From Eubacteriaceae bacterium ES3 (GTDB lineage Bacteria; Bacillota; Clostridia; Eubacteriales; Eubacteriaceae), in NCBI GenBank assembly GCA_030586155.1, contig CP130741.1, positions 396,680 to 428,679 on the forward strand: a stretch of 32,000 nucleotides of DNA. The letters are read 5' to 3'. Of this stretch, positions 487 to 15,934 are shown piece after piece; position 1 is the first letter of the stretch; each line of letters opens with the position of its first letter. Below the pieces are notes generated by a model. The model did not search any database and was not told the origin of the DNA. It was given only the letters and a program-made list of their open reading frames with translations. The position numbers were made by a program, and so were the translations under genes.

Positions 487-1026
487 CTATTCTGTTTCAT
501 AACCCAGTAGTTGCAGGTGCGATTCCAGACTCAGATAATTTGGTGCAAAAGCCTCTTCTTTAATATGCGGGCAGTCGTTGAGATGCGCAGTTCCCAAAAT
601 AAGTTTTGAAGAAAAAGCCATGCAGGAAGGTTGTGAGCAGTCCCGGCATCCCCTTTTTTGTGGCAATAGTTTGTAAAGCTGGATGGCATTAGGACGTTCT
701 CGGGTTTCGTTATTAGGGGTTATGTTTTCCCTGTTCTCCCAAGTTTCATTAATTAAATCAAAAATATGGTCAATCATCTCATAACATTCAGATTCATTAG
801 TCAGCTGAGTGCAGGTTAAATCCTGATCATGAATATTAACAATATGACTTTCAATTTTATAGGTAAAAGTTTGGGCTGCAGGTATATAGAGTCCGGTTTT
901 TATAACGCTATTTAAATAAGGCATCACTTCTGGCACAGCATTACTCATTTTGGCCCGAAATTTAATCCGGCCACCGCCGGTTGTGCAGGGTTTGATATAG
1001 ACAAGATTGATGGATGACAGAATCAT
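487..1026 (-). CDS. Fe-S-binding protein with a C-terminal CFeSP/RnfB-type [4Fe-4S] domain
   Basis: The C-terminal GCRDCSQPSCMAFSSKLILGTAHLNDCP gives C-x2-C-x4-C-x16-CP. This is the spacing of the 'putative Fe-S cluster' domain at the N-termini of the corrinoid Fe-S protein large subunit and RnfB. The start overlaps the upstream gene's stop by 4 nt (ATGA). Confidence 0.6.
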   Translation of the reverse strand: MILSSINLVYIKPCTTGGGRIKFRAKMSNAVPEVMPYLNSVIKTGLYIPAAQTFTYKIESHIVNIHDQDLTCTQLTNESECYEMIDHIFDLINETWENRENITPNNETRERPNAIQLYKLLPQKRGCRDCSQPSCMAFSSKLILGTAHLNDCPHIKEEAFAPNYLSLESHLQLLGYETE

Positions 1027-2177
1027 TGTTTGTTCTCCTTTAAATACGTTTTAAGCCCTGTGACTAAAGCATTAATATCGTCGGATTCGTTAAAGTAGCC
1101 AATTCCGATACGGCAAGTTCCCCGGTTGACAGTGCCAATCAGTCGATGGGCGCTGGGAGCACAGTGAAGACCAGACCGAATCATAATCTGATATTTTTGA
1201 TCCAGATAATAAGCGACTTCTTCCGGTGCTTCTCCAGCAAGGTTGAAAGCAATAACGCCAACTGTTTTCGCTGGATCACGAGGGCCATAGATTTCGATGC
1301 CCGGAACTGTTTTTAATTGTTCAAGAGCATAATTCATAAGTGTAGATTCTTTGTTAGCGATAAGATCAAGACCGGTTTTTTGAATGAACGCAATGGCTTT
1401 TCCCAGACCGATTATTCCGCTAACATTCATGGTGCCGGCTTCAAGGTGGTTGGGGTAGTAATCGGGCTGATATTCATAGGCGGAGTCACCGCCGGTGCCT
1501 CCGGAAATCAATGGGTGGATATTGACATCGCAGTTGACAACCAGACCGCCAGTTCCCATTGGGCCAAGCAGACTTTTGTGACCGGTAAAGGCCAGAAGAT
1601 CAATGTTGTGTGCCTGAACATCAATTGGCAGGACACCAGCAGACTGAGCGGCATCCACTAGAAAAAGAAGACCATTTTCGTGTGCCAGTTGACCAATTTG
1701 TTCAATCGGCTGAATCGTCCCCAATACATTGGAAGCATGGGTAAAGACAATCATTTTGGTCTGTGGTGTTAGGGCGGTTCTCACGTCGGCAATACTGGTT
1801 TCCCCGCTTTGGTTAGCGGGGACTGAGGTGATTGAAATACCGCGATCCCTTTCCAGGGTTTTTAAACACCGCCAGACGGCATTATGTTCTAGTGAGCTGG
1901 TAACAACATGATCGCCATCTTGTAATATTCCCTGCAGGGCCAAGTTCAGGGATTCGGTAACAGATGAAGAAAAAACAACCGTTTTAGGATCGGGGTGGTT
2001 AAAAAGCTGAGCCAGCTGTTTTCTGGTTTGATAAACCAAACCGTCGGCAATAATAGCCTTTTCATAAGCCCCTCTCCCGGAAGTTCCACCGTTGTTGACC
2101 ATATAGTCATAAACCGATTCAGAAACACTCAAGGGTTTGGGAAAGGAAGTTGCGGCATTGTCAAGGTAAACGCTCAT
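1023..2177 (-). CDS. Class V aminotransferase, cysteine desulfurase / selenocysteine lyase family
   Basis: The 384-aa protein has a PLP-lysine context (AFTGHKSLLGPMGTGGL), a C-terminal active-site loop (RSGLHCAP) and an overall NifS/CsdA-like sequence (VYLDNAATSFP...). Confidence 0.85.
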   Translation of the reverse strand: MSVYLDNAATSFPKPLSVSESVYDYMVNNGGTSGRGAYEKAIIADGLVYQTRKQLAQLFNHPDPKTVVFSSSVTESLNLALQGILQDGDHVVTSSLEHNAVWRCLKTLERDRGISITSVPANQSGETSIADVRTALTPQTKMIVFTHASNVLGTIQPIEQIGQLAHENGLLFLVDAAQSAGVLPIDVQAHNIDLLAFTGHKSLLGPMGTGGLVVNCDVNIHPLISGGTGGDSAYEYQPDYYPNHLEAGTMNVSGIIGLGKAIAFIQKTGLDLIANKESTLMNYALEQLKTVPGIEIYGPRDPAKTVGVIAFNLAGEAPEEVAYYLDQKYQIMIRSGLHCAPSAHRLIGTVNRGTCRIGIGYFNESDDINALVTGLKTYLKENKQ

Positions 2178-2549: not shown

Positions 2550-3602
2550 ATGGGAAAAATAATGAAAAAAACAATGCAAGAAACAATGGAACTGAAACGG
2601 GTGTATATCGAACTGACCAACCGTTGCAATCTGGATTGTCAGATGTGCTTCAGGCACAGTTGGGAAACTGTTGAAGGTGATATGGATTTTGAAATGCTTA
2701 AAAGGCTGAAAAAACAGATCGAAGAAATTGGAACAGTCAATGAAATTTTCTTTGGCGGAATTGGCGAGCCAACGATCTATCCCTATTTTAAAGAAGCGGT
2801 AGAATTATTTAAAGACTATCGTTTGCTGATAACCAGTAACGGAATTATGCCACAGGAAACAGCCAAAATTTTATGTGAAAATTTTGGTGCTGTATTTTTT
2901 TCGGCTGATCAGTATCATGAGGAAACTCAGGGACTTAAAGATCAGCTGATAAAGACTTTTGAATATTTTGCTGATTATCATCGAAGAACCCGCTCATCTA
3001 CCCCTAAAACGGGAATCGCCTATGTGTTGACAAAAAGTAATCATGAAGAGTTGTTTGAGATTCTGGAGGTAATGCGACATTACGGATTTCATCGACTCAA
3101 TCTTTCTCATTTGATGCCGCTTTCCCAAGAAGGAGAAGATGAGATATTTTATACCCGCTATGAAAATGTCGAGGGTAAAAAGTTCAGAGATAAAATGTAT
3201 ACCTATCGGGATATCAAAGTCAATATGCCTGATATGGAATTAAAAACCGAACGGCGATGTGATTTTATCGATAAAGGTTATATCTACATCGATGCAAGTG
3301 GTGAGGTAATTTCCTGCTATCGTTTAGCTAATACCTATGATGAAGTTGTTTTTGGTGAAAAGAAGCGGGTGATTAAACATTCCTTTGGCAATGTGAAAGA
3401 GACTCCGCTAAAAGAAATCATTGAAGGCAAAGACTATCAGGATTTTTGGCATACAATTTACAACAATCAGTATCCATCGTGTGTAGACTGCGATCTGCGT
3501 GGTGGTTGCAGTTTAGTGGAAGATACAAAATATGACTGCTATTTTAATACGCCATCCTGTTCTGATTGTCTTTGGGTCAGAAATTTTATTCGCTGTCCAT
3601 AG
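2550..3602 (+). CDS. Radical SAM protein with a C-terminal SPASM/twitch-like cysteine cluster
   Basis: CNLDCQMC provides the CxxxCxxC motif at C26/C30/C33, and GGIGEP follows downstream. The C-terminus is Cys-rich (CVDCDLRGGCS...CYFNTPSCSDC). The start is ambiguous because AGGAG at 2544-2548 abuts the ATG at 2550; the ATG at 2562 is an alternative. Confidence 0.8.
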   Translation: MGKIMKKTMQETMELKRVYIELTNRCNLDCQMCFRHSWETVEGDMDFEMLKRLKKQIEEIGTVNEIFFGGIGEPTIYPYFKEAVELFKDYRLLITSNGIMPQETAKILCENFGAVFFSADQYHEETQGLKDQLIKTFEYFADYHRRTRSSTPKTGIAYVLTKSNHEELFEILEVMRHYGFHRLNLSHLMPLSQEGEDEIFYTRYENVEGKKFRDKMYTYRDIKVNMPDMELKTERRCDFIDKGYIYIDASGEVISCYRLANTYDEVVFGEKKRVIKHSFGNVKETPLKEIIEGKDYQDFWHTIYNNQYPSCVDCDLRGGCSLVEDTKYDCYFNTPSCSDCLWVRNFIRCP

Positions 3603-3652
3603 AAGTTGAAGGGTCGATGAACCTTTATAAATGGAAAATATTAAATTTAGGA

Positions 3653-3681
3653 TTGACTCGGAGAAATTCCGGGTGTACAAT
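3653..3681 (+). promoter_or_regulatory. Sigma-70-like promoter in front of the HdrA-like/DGC operon
   Basis: TTGACT (3653-3658) is followed by a 17-nt spacer and TACAAT (3676-3681), about 40 nt upstream of the ATG at 3722. GAGG lies 8 nt before that ATG. Confidence 0.5.
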
Positions 3682-3721
3682 ATCCATAAGCAAATAATTA
3701 AATAATAAAGAGGTAAATGAT

Positions 3722-4093
3722 ATGAGTCAGGAATTGCCAGGATTTTTAATGTGTGTCTGTACTGGAAAGTGCCCAGGTTTTCAGGCTATGGATATATGGG
3801 ATTTTATCAATCAGGTGAGAGTAGAACTGCCAGTGGAGTATGCTTTCATCCATCCCCAGTTATGCGAAGAGGATGGCGATCGTTTTTTGGCGGATTTTTT
3901 AAAAAGCCACCGCAAGGTGATTATTGGAGCCTGTGCCCCAAATATGCAGAAAAAAATGTTCAAGGATGCTTTTAAAGAAGCCGGACTTGACGTGATGGAA
4001 GATGCAGTGATGTTGGATATTCGTGATATGACCAACGAAGAAGCTTTCGAGAAAGTAGAAGAAAAGCTCGAAGAGATGGGATATGAGGTGTAA
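3722..4093 (+). CDS. Stand-alone HdrA/QmoA-like cysteine-rich domain protein (123 aa)
   Basis: CVCTGKC...IHPQLCEEDG...VIIGACAPNMQKKMFKDAFKEAGLD...MLDIRD parallels the HdrA segment I recall as xCxCGxNI...CS..G...VVVAACSPRTHEPLF....AGLN...ANIREQ. No FAD or Rossmann part is present. Confidence 0.5.
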   Translation: MSQELPGFLMCVCTGKCPGFQAMDIWDFINQVRVELPVEYAFIHPQLCEEDGDRFLADFLKSHRKVIIGACAPNMQKKMFKDAFKEAGLDVMEDAVMLDIRDMTNEEAFEKVEEKLEEMGYEV

Positions 4094-4095
4094 CC

Positions 4096-4404
4096 ATGAG
4101 TGAATCAACCTTTATGGGTGTGGACCGGGAGAAAATTGACTGGTGTCCAACCATTGATTATGATAAATGCAACGATTGTATGGATTGTGTAGAGTTTTGC
4201 CCACATAAGGTTTTTGAGGTGAGAGAAAATGAAACGCCAAAACTAATTGTCAAAAATCCTAAGAACTGTGTGGTTTTTTGTCGTGCCTGTTCTAAAACGT
4301 GTGGATTGGATGCGTTGTCATTCCCTGATAAAAATGAGACAACAAGAAAAATCAAGGCAACTCGTAAAGCGGAAAAGGCAGCTAAGAAAGAGGCGGAAGA
4401 ATGA
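4096..4404 (+). CDS. 4Fe-4S dicluster ferredoxin-domain protein with a Lys/Glu-rich tail
   Basis: It has CNDCMDCVEFCP (CxxCxxCxxxCP) and a second, atypically spaced motif, CVVFCRACSKTC (C-x3-C-x2-C-x3-C). The start lies 2 nt after the upstream stop. Confidence 0.8.
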   Translation: MSESTFMGVDREKIDWCPTIDYDKCNDCMDCVEFCPHKVFEVRENETPKLIVKNPKNCVVFCRACSKTCGLDALSFPDKNETTRKIKATRKAEKAAKKEAEE

Positions 4405-5237
4405 AATGTATACTGCCTTGCAACGGACTTGATAAATGTGCCGGATTGGTTTCTGCCCAGACTGCTATCGAACTGAGTAAACAGGAAGGTTGGGAGCTGG
4501 TTTGTCCGGTACTCCTAAATCAGAATAAAAGCCCTTATGAAAAGGTGCTTTCCCAGGGGGAGCTGGTAGTGCTTGATGGGTGTAATACCCGGTGTGCCAG
4601 CAAATTGGTGCAAAGCCTGGATTTAAAGTTTAAAGATAAGCTGAATGTCAGCGAGGTGGCCAAGTCTCTTGATGTGAAGCTGGGCAAGGAATTGGCTGTA
4701 AATGATTCAACCAGGGAAGTTCAAAAGGCCTTGATTGAAAAACTGACTCAGGCTGAGGATAAAAAGGAAACTACGAGCTTTGAAATGGGCTCTATCGACT
4801 ATGATTCCTTCATGGAAGGCAAGTTTGTTTTCAAAGTGCCTAAAGAAGGCTTTCATTTTAATGAAAATGACTGCTGGATTTATGTATCGGGAAAGACAGC
4901 CAGAATTGGTGTTAGCGATTATGTTCAGCAGAATCTTTCAGATATTCTCTATGTGGATTCGCCAGAAATTGGAGATGAAGTTGAGCAGTTTGATGATTGC
5001 GGCAGTATCGAATCGGGCAAGGCGGTTTTTGAGATCATTTCACCGGTATCCGGAACAGTAATCGCGGTAAATGAGGAACTCCAGGATTCACCTGAATTGA
5101 TCAATGAAGCTCCTTACGAAAAGGGCTGGTTGGTGGAACTTGAATTAACTGATGAACTTCAGGATGATTTGGAGATTCTCCATGATGGACCATCCTATTT
5201 TGAATATCTGAAAAAGAAGGTGGCAGAAGATGTCTAA
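4401..5237 (+). CDS. Fusion protein: N-terminal DGC (putative Zn/4-Cys) domain and C-terminal glycine-cleavage H-protein-like lipoyl-carrier domain
   Basis: The N-terminus has ILPCNG...VCPVLL...VVLDGCNTRCA, the four-Cys DGC pattern. The C-terminal IGVSDYVQQNLSDILYVDSPEIGDEVEQFDDCGSIESGKAVFEIISPVSGTVIAVNEELQDSPELINEAPYEKGW aligns by eye with E. coli GcvH (VGITEHAQ...[34 protein letters not shown].GGW). The lipoyl-Lys position is retained at K207, codon 5019-5021. The start overlaps the upstream stop (ATGA). Confidence 0.75.
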   Translation: MKCILPCNGLDKCAGLVSAQTAIELSKQEGWELVCPVLLNQNKSPYEKVLSQGELVVLDGCNTRCASKLVQSLDLKFKDKLNVSEVAKSLDVKLGKELAVNDSTREVQKALIEKLTQAEDKKETTSFEMGSIDYDSFMEGKFVFKVPKEGFHFNENDCWIYVSGKTARIGVSDYVQQNLSDILYVDSPEIGDEVEQFDDCGSIESGKAVFEIISPVSGTVIAVNEELQDSPELINEAPYEKGWLVELELTDELQDDLEILHDGPSYFEYLKKKVAEDV

Positions 5238-5628
5238 AATTAAAGTATTGCCCTGCTCTGGGATTGGAAAAGTTCTGGGGCTTTTGGCGCGTGAATCGGT
5301 GTTGCTGGTCACTCAGGACAAATGCCCAGAAGAAACAGAGACCCTGTGTCTGGCCCAGCTTGTGACTGGTGATGATGAAGTACTCAAGCGGATAAATGGT
5401 GAAACTTGTATTACCATGGATGGCTGTCCCAAGAAATGTGCTTTAAAAAGTGTCGAAGCAGCCGGTGGTAATGTGGCCAAAAGTTTTAAGGTAGCTGATT
5501 ATATGAAGGCACATCGGGGTGAAGATCATGGCACGGCTACGGCTTTGACTGCTGACGGCTGGAATTATGCCGAAGAGCTGGCTGACAAAATGGCTGAGAT
5601 GGTTGAACAGCTTAGGGGGGAGATCTGA
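5230..5628 (+). CDS. DGC-domain (putative zinc-binding, 4-Cys) protein
   Basis: VLPCSGIGK...LCLAQL...ITMDGCPKKCA gives the pattern CSG / C-L / DGC / xxxC-A. The gene overlaps the upstream gene by 8 nt. Confidence 0.7.
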   Translation: MSKIKVLPCSGIGKVLGLLARESVLLVTQDKCPEETETLCLAQLVTGDDEVLKRINGETCITMDGCPKKCALKSVEAAGGNVAKSFKVADYMKAHRGEDHGTATALTADGWNYAEELADKMAEMVEQLRGEI

Positions 5629-6023
5629 TGAGTGAAAAAAAAATCGGTGTTGTTGCCTGCAGCGGTGAAGAATGTCTGGGAGGAACTATTTCGCGATTGG
5701 CAGTAAGAAAAATTATGGAAGAAGATCGCCCGGGGACGACCACGACTTTGTGTCTGCCTCTTTTTATTGCTGGTGATGGCGGTGAACGGGAGTTTGCCAA
5801 GAACTATCCGACTATAGCAGTTGATGGCTGCTCAAAATGCTGTGCCAAGCGATCTATTGAAAAATTCAGTAGTCAAGTGGCAGGTAGCGTAGACATTGAA
5901 AAGATCTTCGGGATTGAAAAGGCTTTGGCGAAACCTTTATCAACTAGAAATGTGACCAAAGCGCACCGGGAAATGGTAGATGAAGTTAGTATTGAAATTT
6001 TAAAGATTTATGATGAACTTTAA
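5628..6023 (+). CDS. DGC-domain (putative zinc-binding, 4-Cys) protein, third paralog
   Basis: VVACSGEEC...LCLPLFIAGD...IAVDGCSKCCAKRS matches the DGC pattern. The start overlaps the upstream stop by 1 nt (TGATG). Confidence 0.7.
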   Translation: MSEKKIGVVACSGEECLGGTISRLAVRKIMEEDRPGTTTTLCLPLFIAGDGGEREFAKNYPTIAVDGCSKCCAKRSIEKFSSQVAGSVDIEKIFGIEKALAKPLSTRNVTKAHREMVDEVSIEILKIYDEL

Positions 6024-6169
6024 ACCCTATTTAGACTATGTCTAAAATTGATAGTCGATTTAGATAATTTGTATCTTATAAGAGTTGTGAAGAGCAAATC
6101 TGGGACTTGTAATTTATTAACATAAGTTAAGTAAAAAATATTTACTGATAACTAGAAAAGAGGAATAGA

Positions 6170-6376
6170 ATGGCTAAAAACTGGTATCCAATGATTAATG
6201 AAGAAAATTGTGTGGAATGTGGATCTTGTGTGGAAAAGTGTACCCATGGCGTTTATGATAAATCCAGTCAGAAACCTATTGTAATTTATACGGATGGCTG
6301 CGTTGATGGTTGTCACGGATGTGGAAATCTTTGTCCGGCAGAGGCAATACAGTATTTTGGAGATACAAACATATAA
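6170..6376 (+). CDS. Small 2x[4Fe-4S] ferredoxin (68 aa)
   Basis: It has CVECGSCVEKC and CVDGCHGCGNLCP. AGAGGA lies 7 nt upstream of the start. Its stop directly abuts the MFS gene's ATG (TAAATG). Confidence 0.8.
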   Translation: MAKNWYPMINEENCVECGSCVEKCTHGVYDKSSQKPIVIYTDGCVDGCHGCGNLCPAEAIQYFGDTNI

Positions 6377-13906: not shown

Positions 13907-15934
13907 ATGAAAAAGATCATATTAAATCTGAAACGAGTACTTAATCGAATCGCTGAAGCAGACAATATGGAACAAATTATGGAAAATGAAAATAAGCTGA
14001 TAATGAGCATTCTGGGGCCAATGTTATTTTTAGGCGCCATCGTTTGTATAATTATTGGATTTTACTGGCAGTTAGGGATCTATTCAACTGCGGGTGTAGC
14101 GGGTACGCTCTTTTTAGGTGGAATATTTATTCTTACCATCCTGCACCGGAAACTTTCACGCCGCCTGGCCTTGAACCTGGTGAGTATGGCAATTACTTTT
14201 AGTTTATTGGCCACCTATCTGACATTATTTGAACATTTCACCTTGTTGTTCTGGCTAATCATCCTGATTATGATTATTCTATCCAATGTGATGCTGCAAC
14301 GAACACTGTTTTATTATATGGCTTTTGCCAGCCTGTTTTTCTTCGTTTACAGCCTGATTCGTTACCCGGATCTGACAATTCAAATGGATAATGCCTTTAA
14401 TCTGACATTCCTGGCAGTTTATTTCTGCCTCATTGTTGCAAGTATTGTCAGTAATACCGTGTATCGTCTAATTATTCAGAAAAAGTTAAAAATTTATGCC
14501 ACCACACTTTATCAGAAGGACAATCTAAATTCATTGTATGAAGATATAGTGGCTCATCAGCATCAGCTTAAGGCACAAAATGAATTATTGCTTAATTATA
14601 ATAATGAGATTGAAGCTAATCAGGAACGGCTGGAGCTTTTGGCCTATACCGATACCTTAACTGGGATCCCCAATCGCAAGATGATTATTGAGCAGATCGA
14701 GTTGATGATTGATTTCAACCAGGAAAACCGCCATCATTTTGCACTGGTTTTTATTGATCTTGATAATTTCAAGAAGATCAATGATTCCATGGGTCATGGA
14801 GCAGGGGATAATTTACTTATTCAGGTCGCTGGTCGCCTCAAGGCAGCAATGGATGAAAGAGATCTGATTGGCCGTTTAGGGGGGGATGAGCTGGCGATTT
14901 TGGTCCGTCGGCAGATTTCAGACGAGAAAGTGTTGAGCTATACAGAAAAACTCTTGAGTCTGCTGTCAAATCCATTTGACCTCGGGGAAAAATCAGTAAT
15001 TATAACAGCCAGTTTTGGAATTGCCATTTGGCCAGGAGATGCAACAACCTGCAGTGATCTCTTAAAGGCGGCTGATACAGCTATGTATAAAGCCAAGGAG
15101 ATGGGAAAAAATTCCGTTCAGTTTTATCGGAAGGAAATGAAAGCCGAAGTGATCTATAAGATAGAACTGGAAAATCGGATGATAAAAGCATTTGAAAATG
15201 AAGATTTTTTCGTGGTTTATCAGCCAATTGTTGATGTTGCCGATCAAAAGAATATGAGTTTTGAAGCTCTGCTTAGATGGGAGGTCCCTGGTCAGGGCTT
15301 GGTATCGCCGGTGGAGTTCATCCCGATGGCCGAAGAAATCGGTCTGATTGGCGAACTTGGTGAATGGGTATTGCGTCAGGCCTGCAAAAAAATCAAGGCA
15401 ATCAAGGCGGAGATGGGGATCGATATTCGTGTGGCAGTTAACGTTTCAGCTGTCCAGATGAAACGTCCGGATTTTCTGGGGGGGATTAGACGGGTCATCG
15501 AAGAGGAATCAGTAGATCCTAAGCAGTTGACTCTGGAGATTACGGAATCTGTTTTTATCGGTCACATTGAGCAGGCTATTATGATTATTAAGGAGCTTAA
15601 AGGGATGGGTGTGATGATCTCGCTTGACGATTTTGGAACCGGCTATTCATCACTGAGTTATCTGATGCAGTTACCGATTGATGTTCTGAAGATTGACCGA
15701 TCTTTTATTAAATCATTGGAAAAAGAAGAAAAGAATAACCGGATAGTTGGCAGTATCATTGAAATGGTCCATAACCTGGACATTCATGTGGTGGCCGAAG
15801 GTGTTGAAGAAACGCCGCAGTTAGATTTCCTCAAAGATAAAAAATGTGACTGGATTCAGGGATATTTATTTAGTCGACCGCTAGGGGATGTTGATATGCT
15901 GAATTATCTTAAAATACAACAGGAAAATGACTAA
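13907..15934 (+). CDS. Membrane-anchored GGDEF-EAL c-di-GMP signalling protein
   Basis: An N-terminal region of about 6 TM helices is followed by a coiled-coil linker. The GGDEF domain has RLGGDELAIL (GGDEL variant). The EAL domain has FEALLRW, DDFGTGYSSL, KIDRSF and AEGVE. I take the start at the ATG at 13907, with AAGAGGTG 7 nt upstream. The 13790 start in the track lacks a good RBS. Confidence 0.85.
   Translation: MKKIILNLKRVLNRIAEADNMEQIMENENKLIMSILGPMLFLGAIVCIIIGFYWQLGIYSTAGVAGTLFLGGIFILTILHRKLSRRLALNLVSMAITFSLLATYLTLFEHFTLLFWLIILIMIILSNVMLQRTLFYYMAFASLFFFVYSLIRYPDLTIQMDNAFNLTFLAVYFCLIVASIVSNTVYRLIIQKKLKIYATTLYQKDNLNSLYEDIVAHQHQLKAQNELLLNYNNEIEANQERLELLAYTDTLTGIPNRKMIIEQIELMIDFNQENRHHFALVFIDLDNFKKINDSMGHGAGDNLLIQVAGRLKAAMDERDLIGRLGGDELAILVRRQISDEKVLSYTEKLLSLLSNPFDLGEKSVIITASFGIAIWPGDATTCSDLLKAADTAMYKAKEMGKNSVQFYRKEMKAEVIYKIELENRMIKAFENEDFFVVYQPIVDVADQKNMSFEALLRWEVPGQGLVSPVEFIPMAEEIGLIGELGEWVLRQACKKIKAIKAEMGIDIRVAVNVSAVQMKRPDFLGGIRRVIEEESVDPKQLTLEITESVFIGHIEQAIMIIKELKGMGVMISLDDFGTGYSSLSYLMQLPIDVLKIDRSFIKSLEKEEKNNRIVGSIIEMVHNLDIHVVAEGVEETPQLDFLKDKKCDWIQGYLFSRPLGDVDMLNYLKIQQEND

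Follow-up and report, generated by a model that had tools for sequence, protein, structure and literature searches.

The lipoate-binding-protein system of sulfur oxidisers, sHdr-LbpA (Cao et al., 2018; PMC6067878), may be regarded as the closest described analogue of a block of five genes that we analysed in a 32,000-nt stretch of the genome of Eubacteriaceae bacterium ES3 (GenBank assembly GCA_030586155.1, contig CP130741.1, positions 396,680 to 428,679 of the forward strand; hereafter the window). The block spans positions 3722-6023 and encodes, in order, a stand-alone protein of the HdrA N-terminal type (HdrAN), a ferredoxin (ferredoxin 1), a fusion of a DGC domain with a GcvH domain (DGC::GcvH) and two small DGC proteins (DGC-1 and DGC-2). 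They form the core of an uncharacterised accessory operon that is widespread in arsenic-resistance islands of anaerobes. Like sHdr-LbpA, the block provides a dedicated GcvH-like lipoyl carrier encoded with Fe-S or Cys-rich redox proteins, and it has an ArsR-family regulator, dihydrolipoyl dehydrogenase (Lpd) as NAD-linked partner and, in many of its loci, a dedicated lipoate ligase. Unlike sHdr-LbpA, it is devoid of sHdrA/B/C, that is, of CCG and FAD domains: Hdr genes were absent among the recurrent neighbours of the block, and scans of the block itself gave only the match to the HdrA N-domain and generic Fer4 matches. Further differences are that neither DsrE3 nor TusA occurs among the recurrent neighbour clusters and rhodanese is found in 6 loci only; that LipS1/LipS2 are missing and the ligase of the block loci is canonical LplA (TIGR00545) rather than sLpl(AB); that the carrier is fused to a DGC domain; and that the hosts are strict anaerobes, not sulfur oxidisers, with ars genes as neighbours. 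On Hdr subunits, LipS/sLpl genes and sulfur transferases, the block is therefore not a member of the sHdr-LbpA system.

With arsenic-resistance (ars) operons (ArsR-ArsD-ArsA-Acr3-ArsC; ArsTX; ArsEFG) the block has in common a CVC-type ArsR and its location in ars islands, where it often shares the locus with ArsA, ArsD, Acr3, ArsC, ArsP or ArsE/F, and its small Cys-rich proteins recall the ArsD metallochaperone. However, no product of the block can be assigned to a named ars family, the predicted fold of the DGC proteins is flavodoxin-like whereas that of ArsD is a thioredoxin fold, and we know of no ars determinant that uses a lipoyl carrier, Lpd or LplA. As in the glycine cleavage system, the H-domain of the fusion scores above the GcvH equivalog cut-off and keeps the lipoyl-lysine, and the Lpd of related loci is a true TIGR01350 member. 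Unlike the H-protein of that system, the H-domain of the block is always fused to DGC and is coupled to Fe-S proteins; moreover, GcvT and GcvP were not among the recurrent neighbours of the ~80 block loci (neighbourhoods only), which argues that the block is not a glycine cleavage system. HdrAN matches the N-terminal Fe-S domain of HdrA (PDB 7bkb, 5odc) with the Cys positions kept, but it has only ~120 aa, lacks the FAD/thioredoxin-reductase and ferredoxin domains and carries an extra invariant Cys (C17). By analogy, then, the block seems to be kin to dedicated lipoyl-carrier redox systems or to ars accessory redox modules.

The five-gene block is conserved in arsenic-resistance islands

First seen around distant homologues of the fusion in Acetobacterium woodii, Clostridium ljungdahlii and Fusibacter sp. 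3D3, the order HdrAN-ferredoxin-DGC::GcvH-DGC-DGC recurs in ~80 loci from several phyla, mostly in Clostridia and also in Bacteroidales/Prolixibacteraceae, Lentimicrobiaceae, Gastranaerophilaceae, and Acidobacteriota and Actinomycetota metagenome-assembled genomes (MAGs). A pattern scan for the fusion in one genome per species found it in 207 species genomes, which is a lower bound. We fetched 80 loci with 10-kb flanks, grouped their open reading frames (ORFs) and those of the window into BLASTP clusters, and annotated each cluster from Pfam and NCBIfam profiles; neighbour counts refer to the 55 loci whose flanks reach at least 6 kb in either direction (full loci) and are approximate owing to crude ORF calling, antisense ORFs having displaced some DGC and ferredoxin genes. 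The consensus arrangement is [ArsR] [Lpd] HdrAN-ferredoxin-DGC::GcvH-DGC-DGC [LplA] [ferredoxin 2] [thioredoxin + DsbD] [MFS (major facilitator superfamily) transporter / split ArsP], with HdrAN in 50/55 full loci and an MFS transporter in 16/55. A gene for Lpd was found in 33 of the 55 and one for LplA in 16, although neither adjoins the block in the window. The Lpd of related loci scores 506 bits with TIGR01350 (cut-off 408.8) and has a CLNxGC active site; the possibility that this flavoprotein is MerA was discarded, as it scores 341 bits against a cut-off of 454 and lacks the C-terminal Cys pair. The LplA is canonical (TIGR00545, 324.6 bits against a cut-off of 280).

The five-gene order is thus not due to chance, and the conservation check proposed in an earlier annotation made from the sequence alone (the first-pass annotation) found it strongly retained. 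The analogy with the lipoate-based sHdr/LbpA system that this annotation had drawn is strengthened by Lpd and LplA, neither of which the window contains, and the contrast it noted, DGC domains present and HdrB/C absent, holds too, since neither HdrB nor HdrC occurs in the block or among its recurrent neighbours. Its description of five tightly packed genes could be reproduced with all four junctions: a 2-nt gap (TAA-CC-ATG, 4094-4095) between HdrAN and ferredoxin 1, a 4-nt ATGA overlap (4401-4404) between ferredoxin 1 and the fusion, an 8-nt overlap (5230-5237) between the fusion and DGC-1, and a 1-nt TGATG overlap (5628) between DGC-1 and DGC-2. Profile and alignment searches likewise identified the three four-Cys DGC domains, the HdrA-type domain, the ferredoxin and the GcvH fusion that it had named. 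It was also right to call these Cys-rich or Fe-S products without an assigned role, for the profile searches it suggested assigned no block protein to a characterised pathway in Pfam or NCBIfam. The cluster is undescribed as claimed: full-text literature searches turned up no account of the block or of PF08859, and in the hits for 'DGC domain' the term always stood for diguanylate cyclases.

Association with arsenic genes is pervasive. ArsR is present in 51/55 full loci and lies within 5 kb of the block in 42; ArsA, ArsD, Acr3 or ArsC is present in 33/55 (Acr3 in 19, ArsA in 16, ArsC in 15), and any ars-type gene in 43/55. Most of the block-adjacent ArsR proteins have CVC, CAC or CC in helix alpha3, at the place where classical ArsR has its As(III)/Sb(III) site; CadC-type sensors have this motif too. 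In C. ljungdahlii and C. ragsdalei, arsR-arsC-arsD-arsA-acr3 adjoins the block, and in Paraclostridium the block is flanked by two ArsRs on one side and acr3-arsD-arsA on the other. In Bacteroidales, the genes immediately before it code for ArsR, an ArsE-type thioredoxin-like protein, an ArsF-like protein and a DsbD_2 protein. In five loci from Bacteroidales and Gastranaerophilaceae (L054, L063, L064, L073 and L081) this ArsR-ArsE-type-ArsF-like-DsbD_2 set takes the upstream place of Lpd, and from their gene content these loci look like an ArsEFG-like organoarsenical module joined to the block. In the window itself, the regulator is cut by the edge; the remaining part, MNANDISVKIFKALGHPVRLEIVKFLIDSPQCVC, has the CVC motif of the metalloid site at its end. 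When 53 cluster-linked ArsR proteins were used in tblastn, their only match in the window was at 1-126 (up to 69% identity), and an ArsR pseudogene in the 372-bp gap upstream of the block (2178-2549) could be dismissed on the same grounds. Locus L006 has the same gene order as the window, with a full ArsR. The only arsenite-exporter candidates of the window are its MFS transporter and split ArsP-like permeases. Its conservation in more than 200 anaerobic species, nearly always beside ArsR and ars genes, makes it probable that the block is a redox module, so far undescribed, that deals with arsenic.

Block proteins, promoters and a shared operator-like box

The fusion scores 61.8 bits for DGC and 115.4 bits for GCV_H in Pfam, and its H-domain exceeds both GcvH cut-offs of NCBIfam (NF002270, 125.5 vs 117 bits; TIGR00527, 120.9 vs 115.85 bits). 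In an alignment of 48 sequences, C7, C35, C61 and C65 of its DGC domain are invariant, as is the lipoyl-lysine K207 in ESGKA. An AlphaFold2 (AF2) model of the fusion (predicted local distance difference test score, pLDDT, 88) has two well-folded domains joined by a disordered linker, residues 118-124, and its predicted template modelling score (pTM) of 0.59 leaves the mutual orientation of the two domains undefined. DGC-1 and DGC-2 match PF08859 with 51.7 and 72 bits (gathering score 27) and are paralogues (hhalign probability 99.5%); alignments gave C9, C40, C66 and C70 as invariant in the former, and C11, C16, C42, C68 and C72 in the latter, four of which correspond to the DGC-1 pattern. The AF2 model of DGC-2 (pLDDT 85, pTM 0.82) has a flavodoxin-like alpha/beta fold in which four invariant Cys are at the C-termini of parallel strands or the N-termini of helices, at one edge of the sheet, the usual cofactor-binding edge of flavodoxin-like folds. 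A structure-database search gave no significant match to a solved structure for the DGC proteins. That DGC and HdrAN could be homologous Cys-rich flavodoxin-like domains was considered and rejected (hhalign probability 0.2%).

HdrAN had no Pfam family match. It matches the N-terminal ~95 residues of HdrA in NCBIfam (E=1.6e-5; the cut-off for full HdrA is 1400 bits) and aligns to residues 10-104 of PDB 7bkb_A (E=6.9e-5) with matching Cys. Five Cys are invariant (C11, C13, C17, C48 and C71), and mean column identity in the HdrAN alignment (A2) is 79%. The HdrAN copies of all 39 other aligned loci, from Firmicutes, Bacteroidales and further phyla, share 67-98% identity with that of the window, whereas the proteins encoded beside it are only ~45-55% identical, making HdrAN the most conserved of the partners. 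This suggests, as far as sequence conservation can tell, a hub protein under very strong constraint, or else recent horizontal spread. The family is small: a collection of 1.84 billion proteins yielded only 107 representatives, nearly all of them 40-210 aa long and without the FAD or ferredoxin domains of HdrA. The N-domain of HdrA carries an Fe-S cluster situated on the way to ferredoxin, one ligand of which, Cys197, is provided in trans (PMC9012536); the extra C17 of HdrAN could replace this trans ligand. Ferredoxin 1 has eight invariant Cys in a CX2CX2CX3C motif followed by an atypical CX3CX2CX3C motif. The latter, already remarked on in the first-pass annotation, is real and invariant in 46/46 orthologues. 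Ferredoxin 2, encoded downstream of the block, also has eight invariant Cys and the same unusual second motif.

A promoter had been proposed just upstream of HdrAN, and a promoter-like site is indeed there. The match alone is not significant (16 such sites in the window vs 10.7 expected); related Eubacteriaceae loci, however, keep both its -35 and its -10 element. In Eubacteriaceae, a box common to this promoter and that of the divergent desulfurase operon, TAAGSAWATNATTA, follows the -10 at a distance of 6-12 nt. There are exactly two matches to the box in the window, both at these promoters, vs 0.02 expected, a statistic that is inflated because the pattern was derived after seeing the sequences, so that conservation across loci is the real evidence. 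The box occurs at the same two positions in L006, L007, L008, L012, L015 and L016. In addition, A. woodii (L001, 14212-14225) has it 32 nt ahead of an ArsR-MFS pair, and L008 (1271-1300) a short way ahead of an ArsP gene. It is conserved in Acetobacterium and Eubacteriaceae loci and is a candidate ArsR operator that would define a small regulon. A search of the intergenic regions for a palindromic ArsR operator found only weak AT-rich inverted repeats.

Neighbouring genes outside the conserved core

The features of the window are collected in Table 1. The co-directional run extends past 6023 to 8617 and takes in ferredoxin 2, the MFS transporter and the two ArsP-like half permeases. These permeases match PF03773 with 34.9 and 47.5 bits, and such a split pair recurs in 15/55 loci, which argues for a genuine two-gene form and not a frameshift. 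The ArsC-like protein scores 95.1 bits with the NCBIfam arsenate reductase (thioredoxin) family, below the cut-off of 215. On the other side, the divergent cysteine desulfurase/Fe-S operon that had been reported to start from a gap of ~370 bp was found, the gap between desulfurase and the radical S-adenosylmethionine (rSAM) gene upstream of the block being 372 bp. The desulfurase matches TIGR01977 with 458.9 bits (cut-off 377); its second-best family is the selenocysteine lyase SclA, with 375 bits, below the cut-off of that family. The desulfurase occurs with the block in 16/55 full loci and the PF04060 gene (domain score 34.2 bits vs a Pfam cut-off of 23) is near it in 14/55. The operon is thus accessory in about a quarter of loci, and in Eubacteriaceae appears to be co-regulated with the block. 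Neither Pfam nor NCBIfam matched the 90-aa ORF, whose orthologues (cluster c43) occupy the corresponding place in L005 and L006. The second rSAM/TetR pair is kept in L006 (78% and 85% identity).

Table 1. Positions of genes and regulatory sites in the window, counted from its first letter.
Feature	Position	Strand	Basis or remark
Truncated ArsR/SmtB regulator, N-terminal 34 codons	1-102	-	tblastn, translation; cut by window edge
Conserved hypothetical protein, 90 aa	203-475	-	ORF list; between PF04060 gene and arsR
179-aa protein with C-terminal PF04060 'putative Fe-S cluster' domain, CFeSP/RnfB N-terminal type	487-1026	-	Pfam
Cysteine desulfurase family protein	1023-2177	-	NCBIfam TIGR01977; divergent
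Operator-like box TAAGCATATCATTA	2237-2224	-	after -10 of desulfurase promoter
Promoter-like site TTGACG-17-TATGAT	2272-2244	-	upstream of desulfurase operon
rSAM/SPASM ORF	2550-3602	+	ORF list, profile scans
Promoter-like site TTGACT-17-TACAAT	3653-3681	+	10/12 match; upstream of five-gene block
Operator-like box TAAGCAAATAATTA	3687-3700	+	after -10 of block promoter
HdrAN, 123 aa	3722-4093	+	ORF list; HdrA N-terminal-type alignment
Ferredoxin 1, 102 aa	4096-4404	+	ORF list; Fer4 profile
DGC::GcvH fusion, 278 aa	4401-5237	+	Pfam and NCBIfam above cut-offs
DGC-1, 132 aa	5230-5628	+	Pfam DGC
DGC-2, 131 aa	5628-6023	+	Pfam DGC
Ferredoxin 2, 68 aa	6170-6376	+	Pfam, motif; recurrent downstream member
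MFS efflux-type transporter	6377-7570	+	ORF list, Pfam; start abuts ferredoxin 2 stop
Pair of half-size permease genes of the ArsP_1 family, overlapping	7602-8081 and 8030-8617	+	Pfam PF03773
ArsC-like protein, low-molecular-weight protein tyrosine phosphatase (LMW-PTP) fold	8698-9114	-	Pfam LMWPc; convergent with operon
Second rSAM gene, no specific family	9412-10509	+	between ArsC-like gene and hgcB
TetR regulator gene	10452-11126	+	overlaps second rSAM by 58 nt
hgcB and hgcA	11239-12678	-	NCBIfam scores above cut-offs
TM1586-type nitroreductase gene	12738-13592	-	directly upstream of hgcA
GGDEF-EAL protein	13790-15934	+	next after nitroreductase
ORF of 1516 aa	26066-30616	+	

Two neighbours that the first-pass annotation had counted as meaningful lie outside the conserved unit. 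The rSAM/SPASM gene is immediately upstream of the block in the window, as stated, but occurs with it in only 8/55 full loci, almost all from Eubacteriaceae. Its product has Radical_SAM and SPASM domains and, over its full length, its best family match is to the TIGR04317 maturases; unlike these, it scores below the equivalog cut-off (333.4 bits vs 380), has no aldehyde ferredoxin oxidoreductase (AOR) gene beside it or elsewhere in the window and has ArsR-paired relatives in Acetobacterium. Homologues are 65-88% identical within Eubacteriaceae, beyond which identity drops to 43% or less. A true member of the wider family, P0361, lies beside AOR-ThiS-ThiF-MoeA, and the A. paludosum orthologue of the window rSAM lies between ThiF/MoeA and a MOSC gene. 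These similarities and contexts place the rSAM in an offshoot of the tungsten-cofactor oxidoreductase maturase family that is confined to Eubacteriaceae, and mark it as a lineage-specific neighbour rather than a core component. The proposal that it is the counterpart of the lipoyl-assembly radical-SAM enzymes could not be sustained, nor could a role as LipS-like enzyme or core component, given its TIGR04317-like sequence, its presence in 8/55 loci and the tungsten/molybdenum-cofactor contexts of its wider family; it is better read, by these sequence criteria, as a Mo/W-cofactor-related maturase. Its true start is probably at 2562 or later, since an AGGAGA Shine-Dalgarno-like sequence abuts the ATG at 2550, the ATG at 2562 is better spaced and homologues have 338 aa; the protein collection searched held no 100%-identical protein for the 350-aa ORF. 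In Acetobacterium, 'ArsR-rSAM(-ArsD)' pairs occur in ars islands several kb from the block (L009, L010, L015, L016 and L071), near ArsA, a HesB-like protein and XdhC. From the Acetobacterium and A. paludosum contexts, arsenic islands and Mo/W-cofactor maturation may be connected in a way that is still unexplained.

The hgcAB genes are ~5 kb from the block and score well above their cut-offs (HgcB, 124.6 bits vs 99; HgcA, 451.7 vs 275). Yet among the ~80 loci, HgcA lies within 10 kb of the block only in the window and in L055 (17387-18424) and L075 (14427-15455), both Prolixibacteraceae MAGs; hgcA is probably also just beyond the flank of L006. As a systematic partner hgcAB was therefore rejected, and its weight as context had been overestimated. 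Two unrelated lineages do carry hgcAB on the same type of ars island. The co-occurrence check envisaged earlier thus turned out positive for ars genes and negative for hgcAB. Of the dithiol relay for a thiophilic metal or metalloid that had been suggested for the cluster, the arsenic part is borne out by the prevalence of ArsR (51/55) and of ArsA, ArsD, Acr3 or ArsC (33/55), whereas Hg(II), with hgcA near 3 of ~80 loci, is little supported.

A possible dihydrolipoyl relay for arsenicals

We tentatively propose, with confidence close to but short of an even balance, that the block is an ArsR-controlled, protein-bound dihydrolipoyl/Fe-S relay that reduces arsenicals, captures them, or does both. 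As(III) or Sb(III) would derepress ArsR and so induce the operon, and the H-domain of the fusion would be lipoylated at K207. The dithiol arm could be kept reduced by NADH via Lpd or, where Lpd is not adjacent, as in the window, by electrons passing from reduced ferredoxin through the block ferredoxin and HdrAN to the DGC centres, which would reduce the lipoyl arm. Trivalent arsenicals are classic ligands of vicinal dithiols, and the dihydrolipoyl group on the fusion would reduce pentavalent arsenicals and/or chelate trivalent ones. The Cys4 sites of the DGC proteins may then pass arsenicals, or electrons, to the co-encoded exporters (MFS, ArsP-like, Acr3 or ArsA). In Eubacteriaceae, the divergent desulfurase/PF04060/ArsR operon would be co-regulated through the shared box and would probably supply sulfur for Fe-S or Cys centres. 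A bolder version, which we hold to be possible but rather doubtful, is that the block constitutes a categorically new arsenic-resistance mechanism in anaerobes, in which lipoylated DGC::GcvH, charged by its own LplA and cycled by its own Lpd or by the ferredoxin/HdrAN/DGC chain, would act as a catalytic dithiol that reduces, chelates or passes on inorganic arsenicals or organoarsenicals.

Several points weigh against this proposal. The four invariant Cys of each DGC domain fit Zn or Fe-S at least as well as As(III), a site for which needs only three Cys. Without Lpd or LplA adjacent to the block, the NADH route is not demonstrable in the window; the window statistic for the box is, as said, inflated; and in 3/55 full loci no ArsR or ars gene lies within 10 kb of the block. 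The signals perceived by ArsR/SmtB regulators include Cd, Zn, Pb and sulfane sulfur as well. Indeed, the sHdr-LbpA system is itself under ArsR-type sulfane-sulfur sensors (PMC12423496).

It is unlikely, yet deserves to be weighed, that the block serves only to supply reductant, as a ferredoxin- or NADH-driven disulfide reductase that replaces thioredoxin reductase/thioredoxin and recycles thiol-dependent ars enzymes without touching arsenic. Its clients would be LMW-PTP ArsC, ArsE-type thioredoxin-like proteins, ArsM and DsbD/thioredoxin pairs. The thioredoxin Trx197 in 15/55 loci, DsbD in 13/55 and ArsE-type thioredoxins in 18/55 are consistent with this, as are the ArsC-like gene adjacent in the window and the electron-carrier character of Lpd, the ferredoxins and HdrAN. 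On the other hand, ArsC is present in only 15/55 loci and thioredoxin/DsbD in about a quarter, cells already have thioredoxin systems, and the invariance of three DGC domains and a lipoyl carrier would be left unexplained. That same invariant set could be imagined to protect or repair non-catalytically, either as a sacrificial lipoyl/Cys4 sponge or as back-up lipoylation and Fe-S supply whose parts would be LplA with a GcvH relay, the cysteine desulfurase and a HesB-like protein; As(III)-sensitive lipoyl and Fe-S proteins would in this way be shielded or replaced. Dihydrolipoyl groups are a classic As(III) target, LplA with an H-protein is an established entry point of lipoyl salvage and relay, and the desulfurase, the PF04060 protein and HesB-like proteins recur as neighbours. 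Nevertheless, two ferredoxins, HdrAN and a dedicated Lpd would be superfluous in a sponge, the loci showed no transferase of the LipL or LipM type, and strict 1:1:1:1:1 translational coupling suggests a defined complex, so that we consider protection or repair quite unlikely.

Very unlikely, in our judgement, is that the block handles another thiophile, be it sulfane sulfur or persulfide in the manner of sHdr/LbpA, selenium, Hg(II) or Cd/Zn, the ars genes being fellow passengers on metal-resistance islands. The ArsR-type repressors of the LbpA system do sense sulfane sulfur, the desulfurase is near SclA (375 bits), HesB-like Se-type proteins, XdhC, cation diffusion facilitator (CDF) transporters and rhodanese occur in some loci, and hgcAB is within 10 kb in the window and in the two Prolixibacteraceae loci. 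However, the block has no HdrB/C, DsrE or TusA genes, rhodanese is limited to 6 loci and HgcA to 3 of ~80, and Lpd lacks MerA features, while the arsenic-specific ArsA, ArsD and Acr3 dominate among the neighbours and the regulators mostly have the As(III)/Sb(III)-type CVC site. The same neighbourhoods disfavour, by synteny, a housekeeping role in glycine cleavage or lipoate metabolism, in which the fusion would be the H-protein of the cell and the proximity of ars genes a coincidence. Although its GcvH domain passes the NCBIfam cut-offs (125.5 vs 117 and 120.9 vs 115.85) and Lpd is the L-protein of the glycine cleavage system, no GcvT or GcvP is among the recurrent neighbours in ~80 loci, the fusion to DGC and the partners HdrAN, ferredoxin and DGC are constant, and ArsR is present in 51/55 loci, and we regard such a role as extremely improbable.

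The toxicity of arsenite is classically explained by its binding to protein-bound dihydrolipoate, and an operon linked to ArsR and equipped with a lipoyl carrier, ligase and Lpd of its own would be an unexpected twist: if the proposed dihydrolipoyl relay is real, the cell turns the very cofactor that arsenite poisons into a catalytic dithiol for inorganic or organic arsenicals. Hosts of the block include the model acetogens A. woodii, Eubacterium limosum/callanderi and C. ljungdahlii, as well as the known arsenic transformers Fusibacter sp. 3D3, Paraclostridium and Desulfosporosinus. The relay, if true, would point to a missing piece of anaerobic arsenic biochemistry, a field in which both the electron sources for the reduction of arsenate and organoarsenicals and the O2-independent detoxification of trivalent methylarsenical, MAs(III), are poorly understood. 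Two orphan families, that of the stand-alone HdrA-N-type protein and DGC/PF08859, would also gain a function for the first time. At present, annotations such as 'glycine cleavage system protein GcvH' and 'putative zinc-binding protein' hide the block, and they may mislead reconstructions of the reductive glycine pathway in acetogens.

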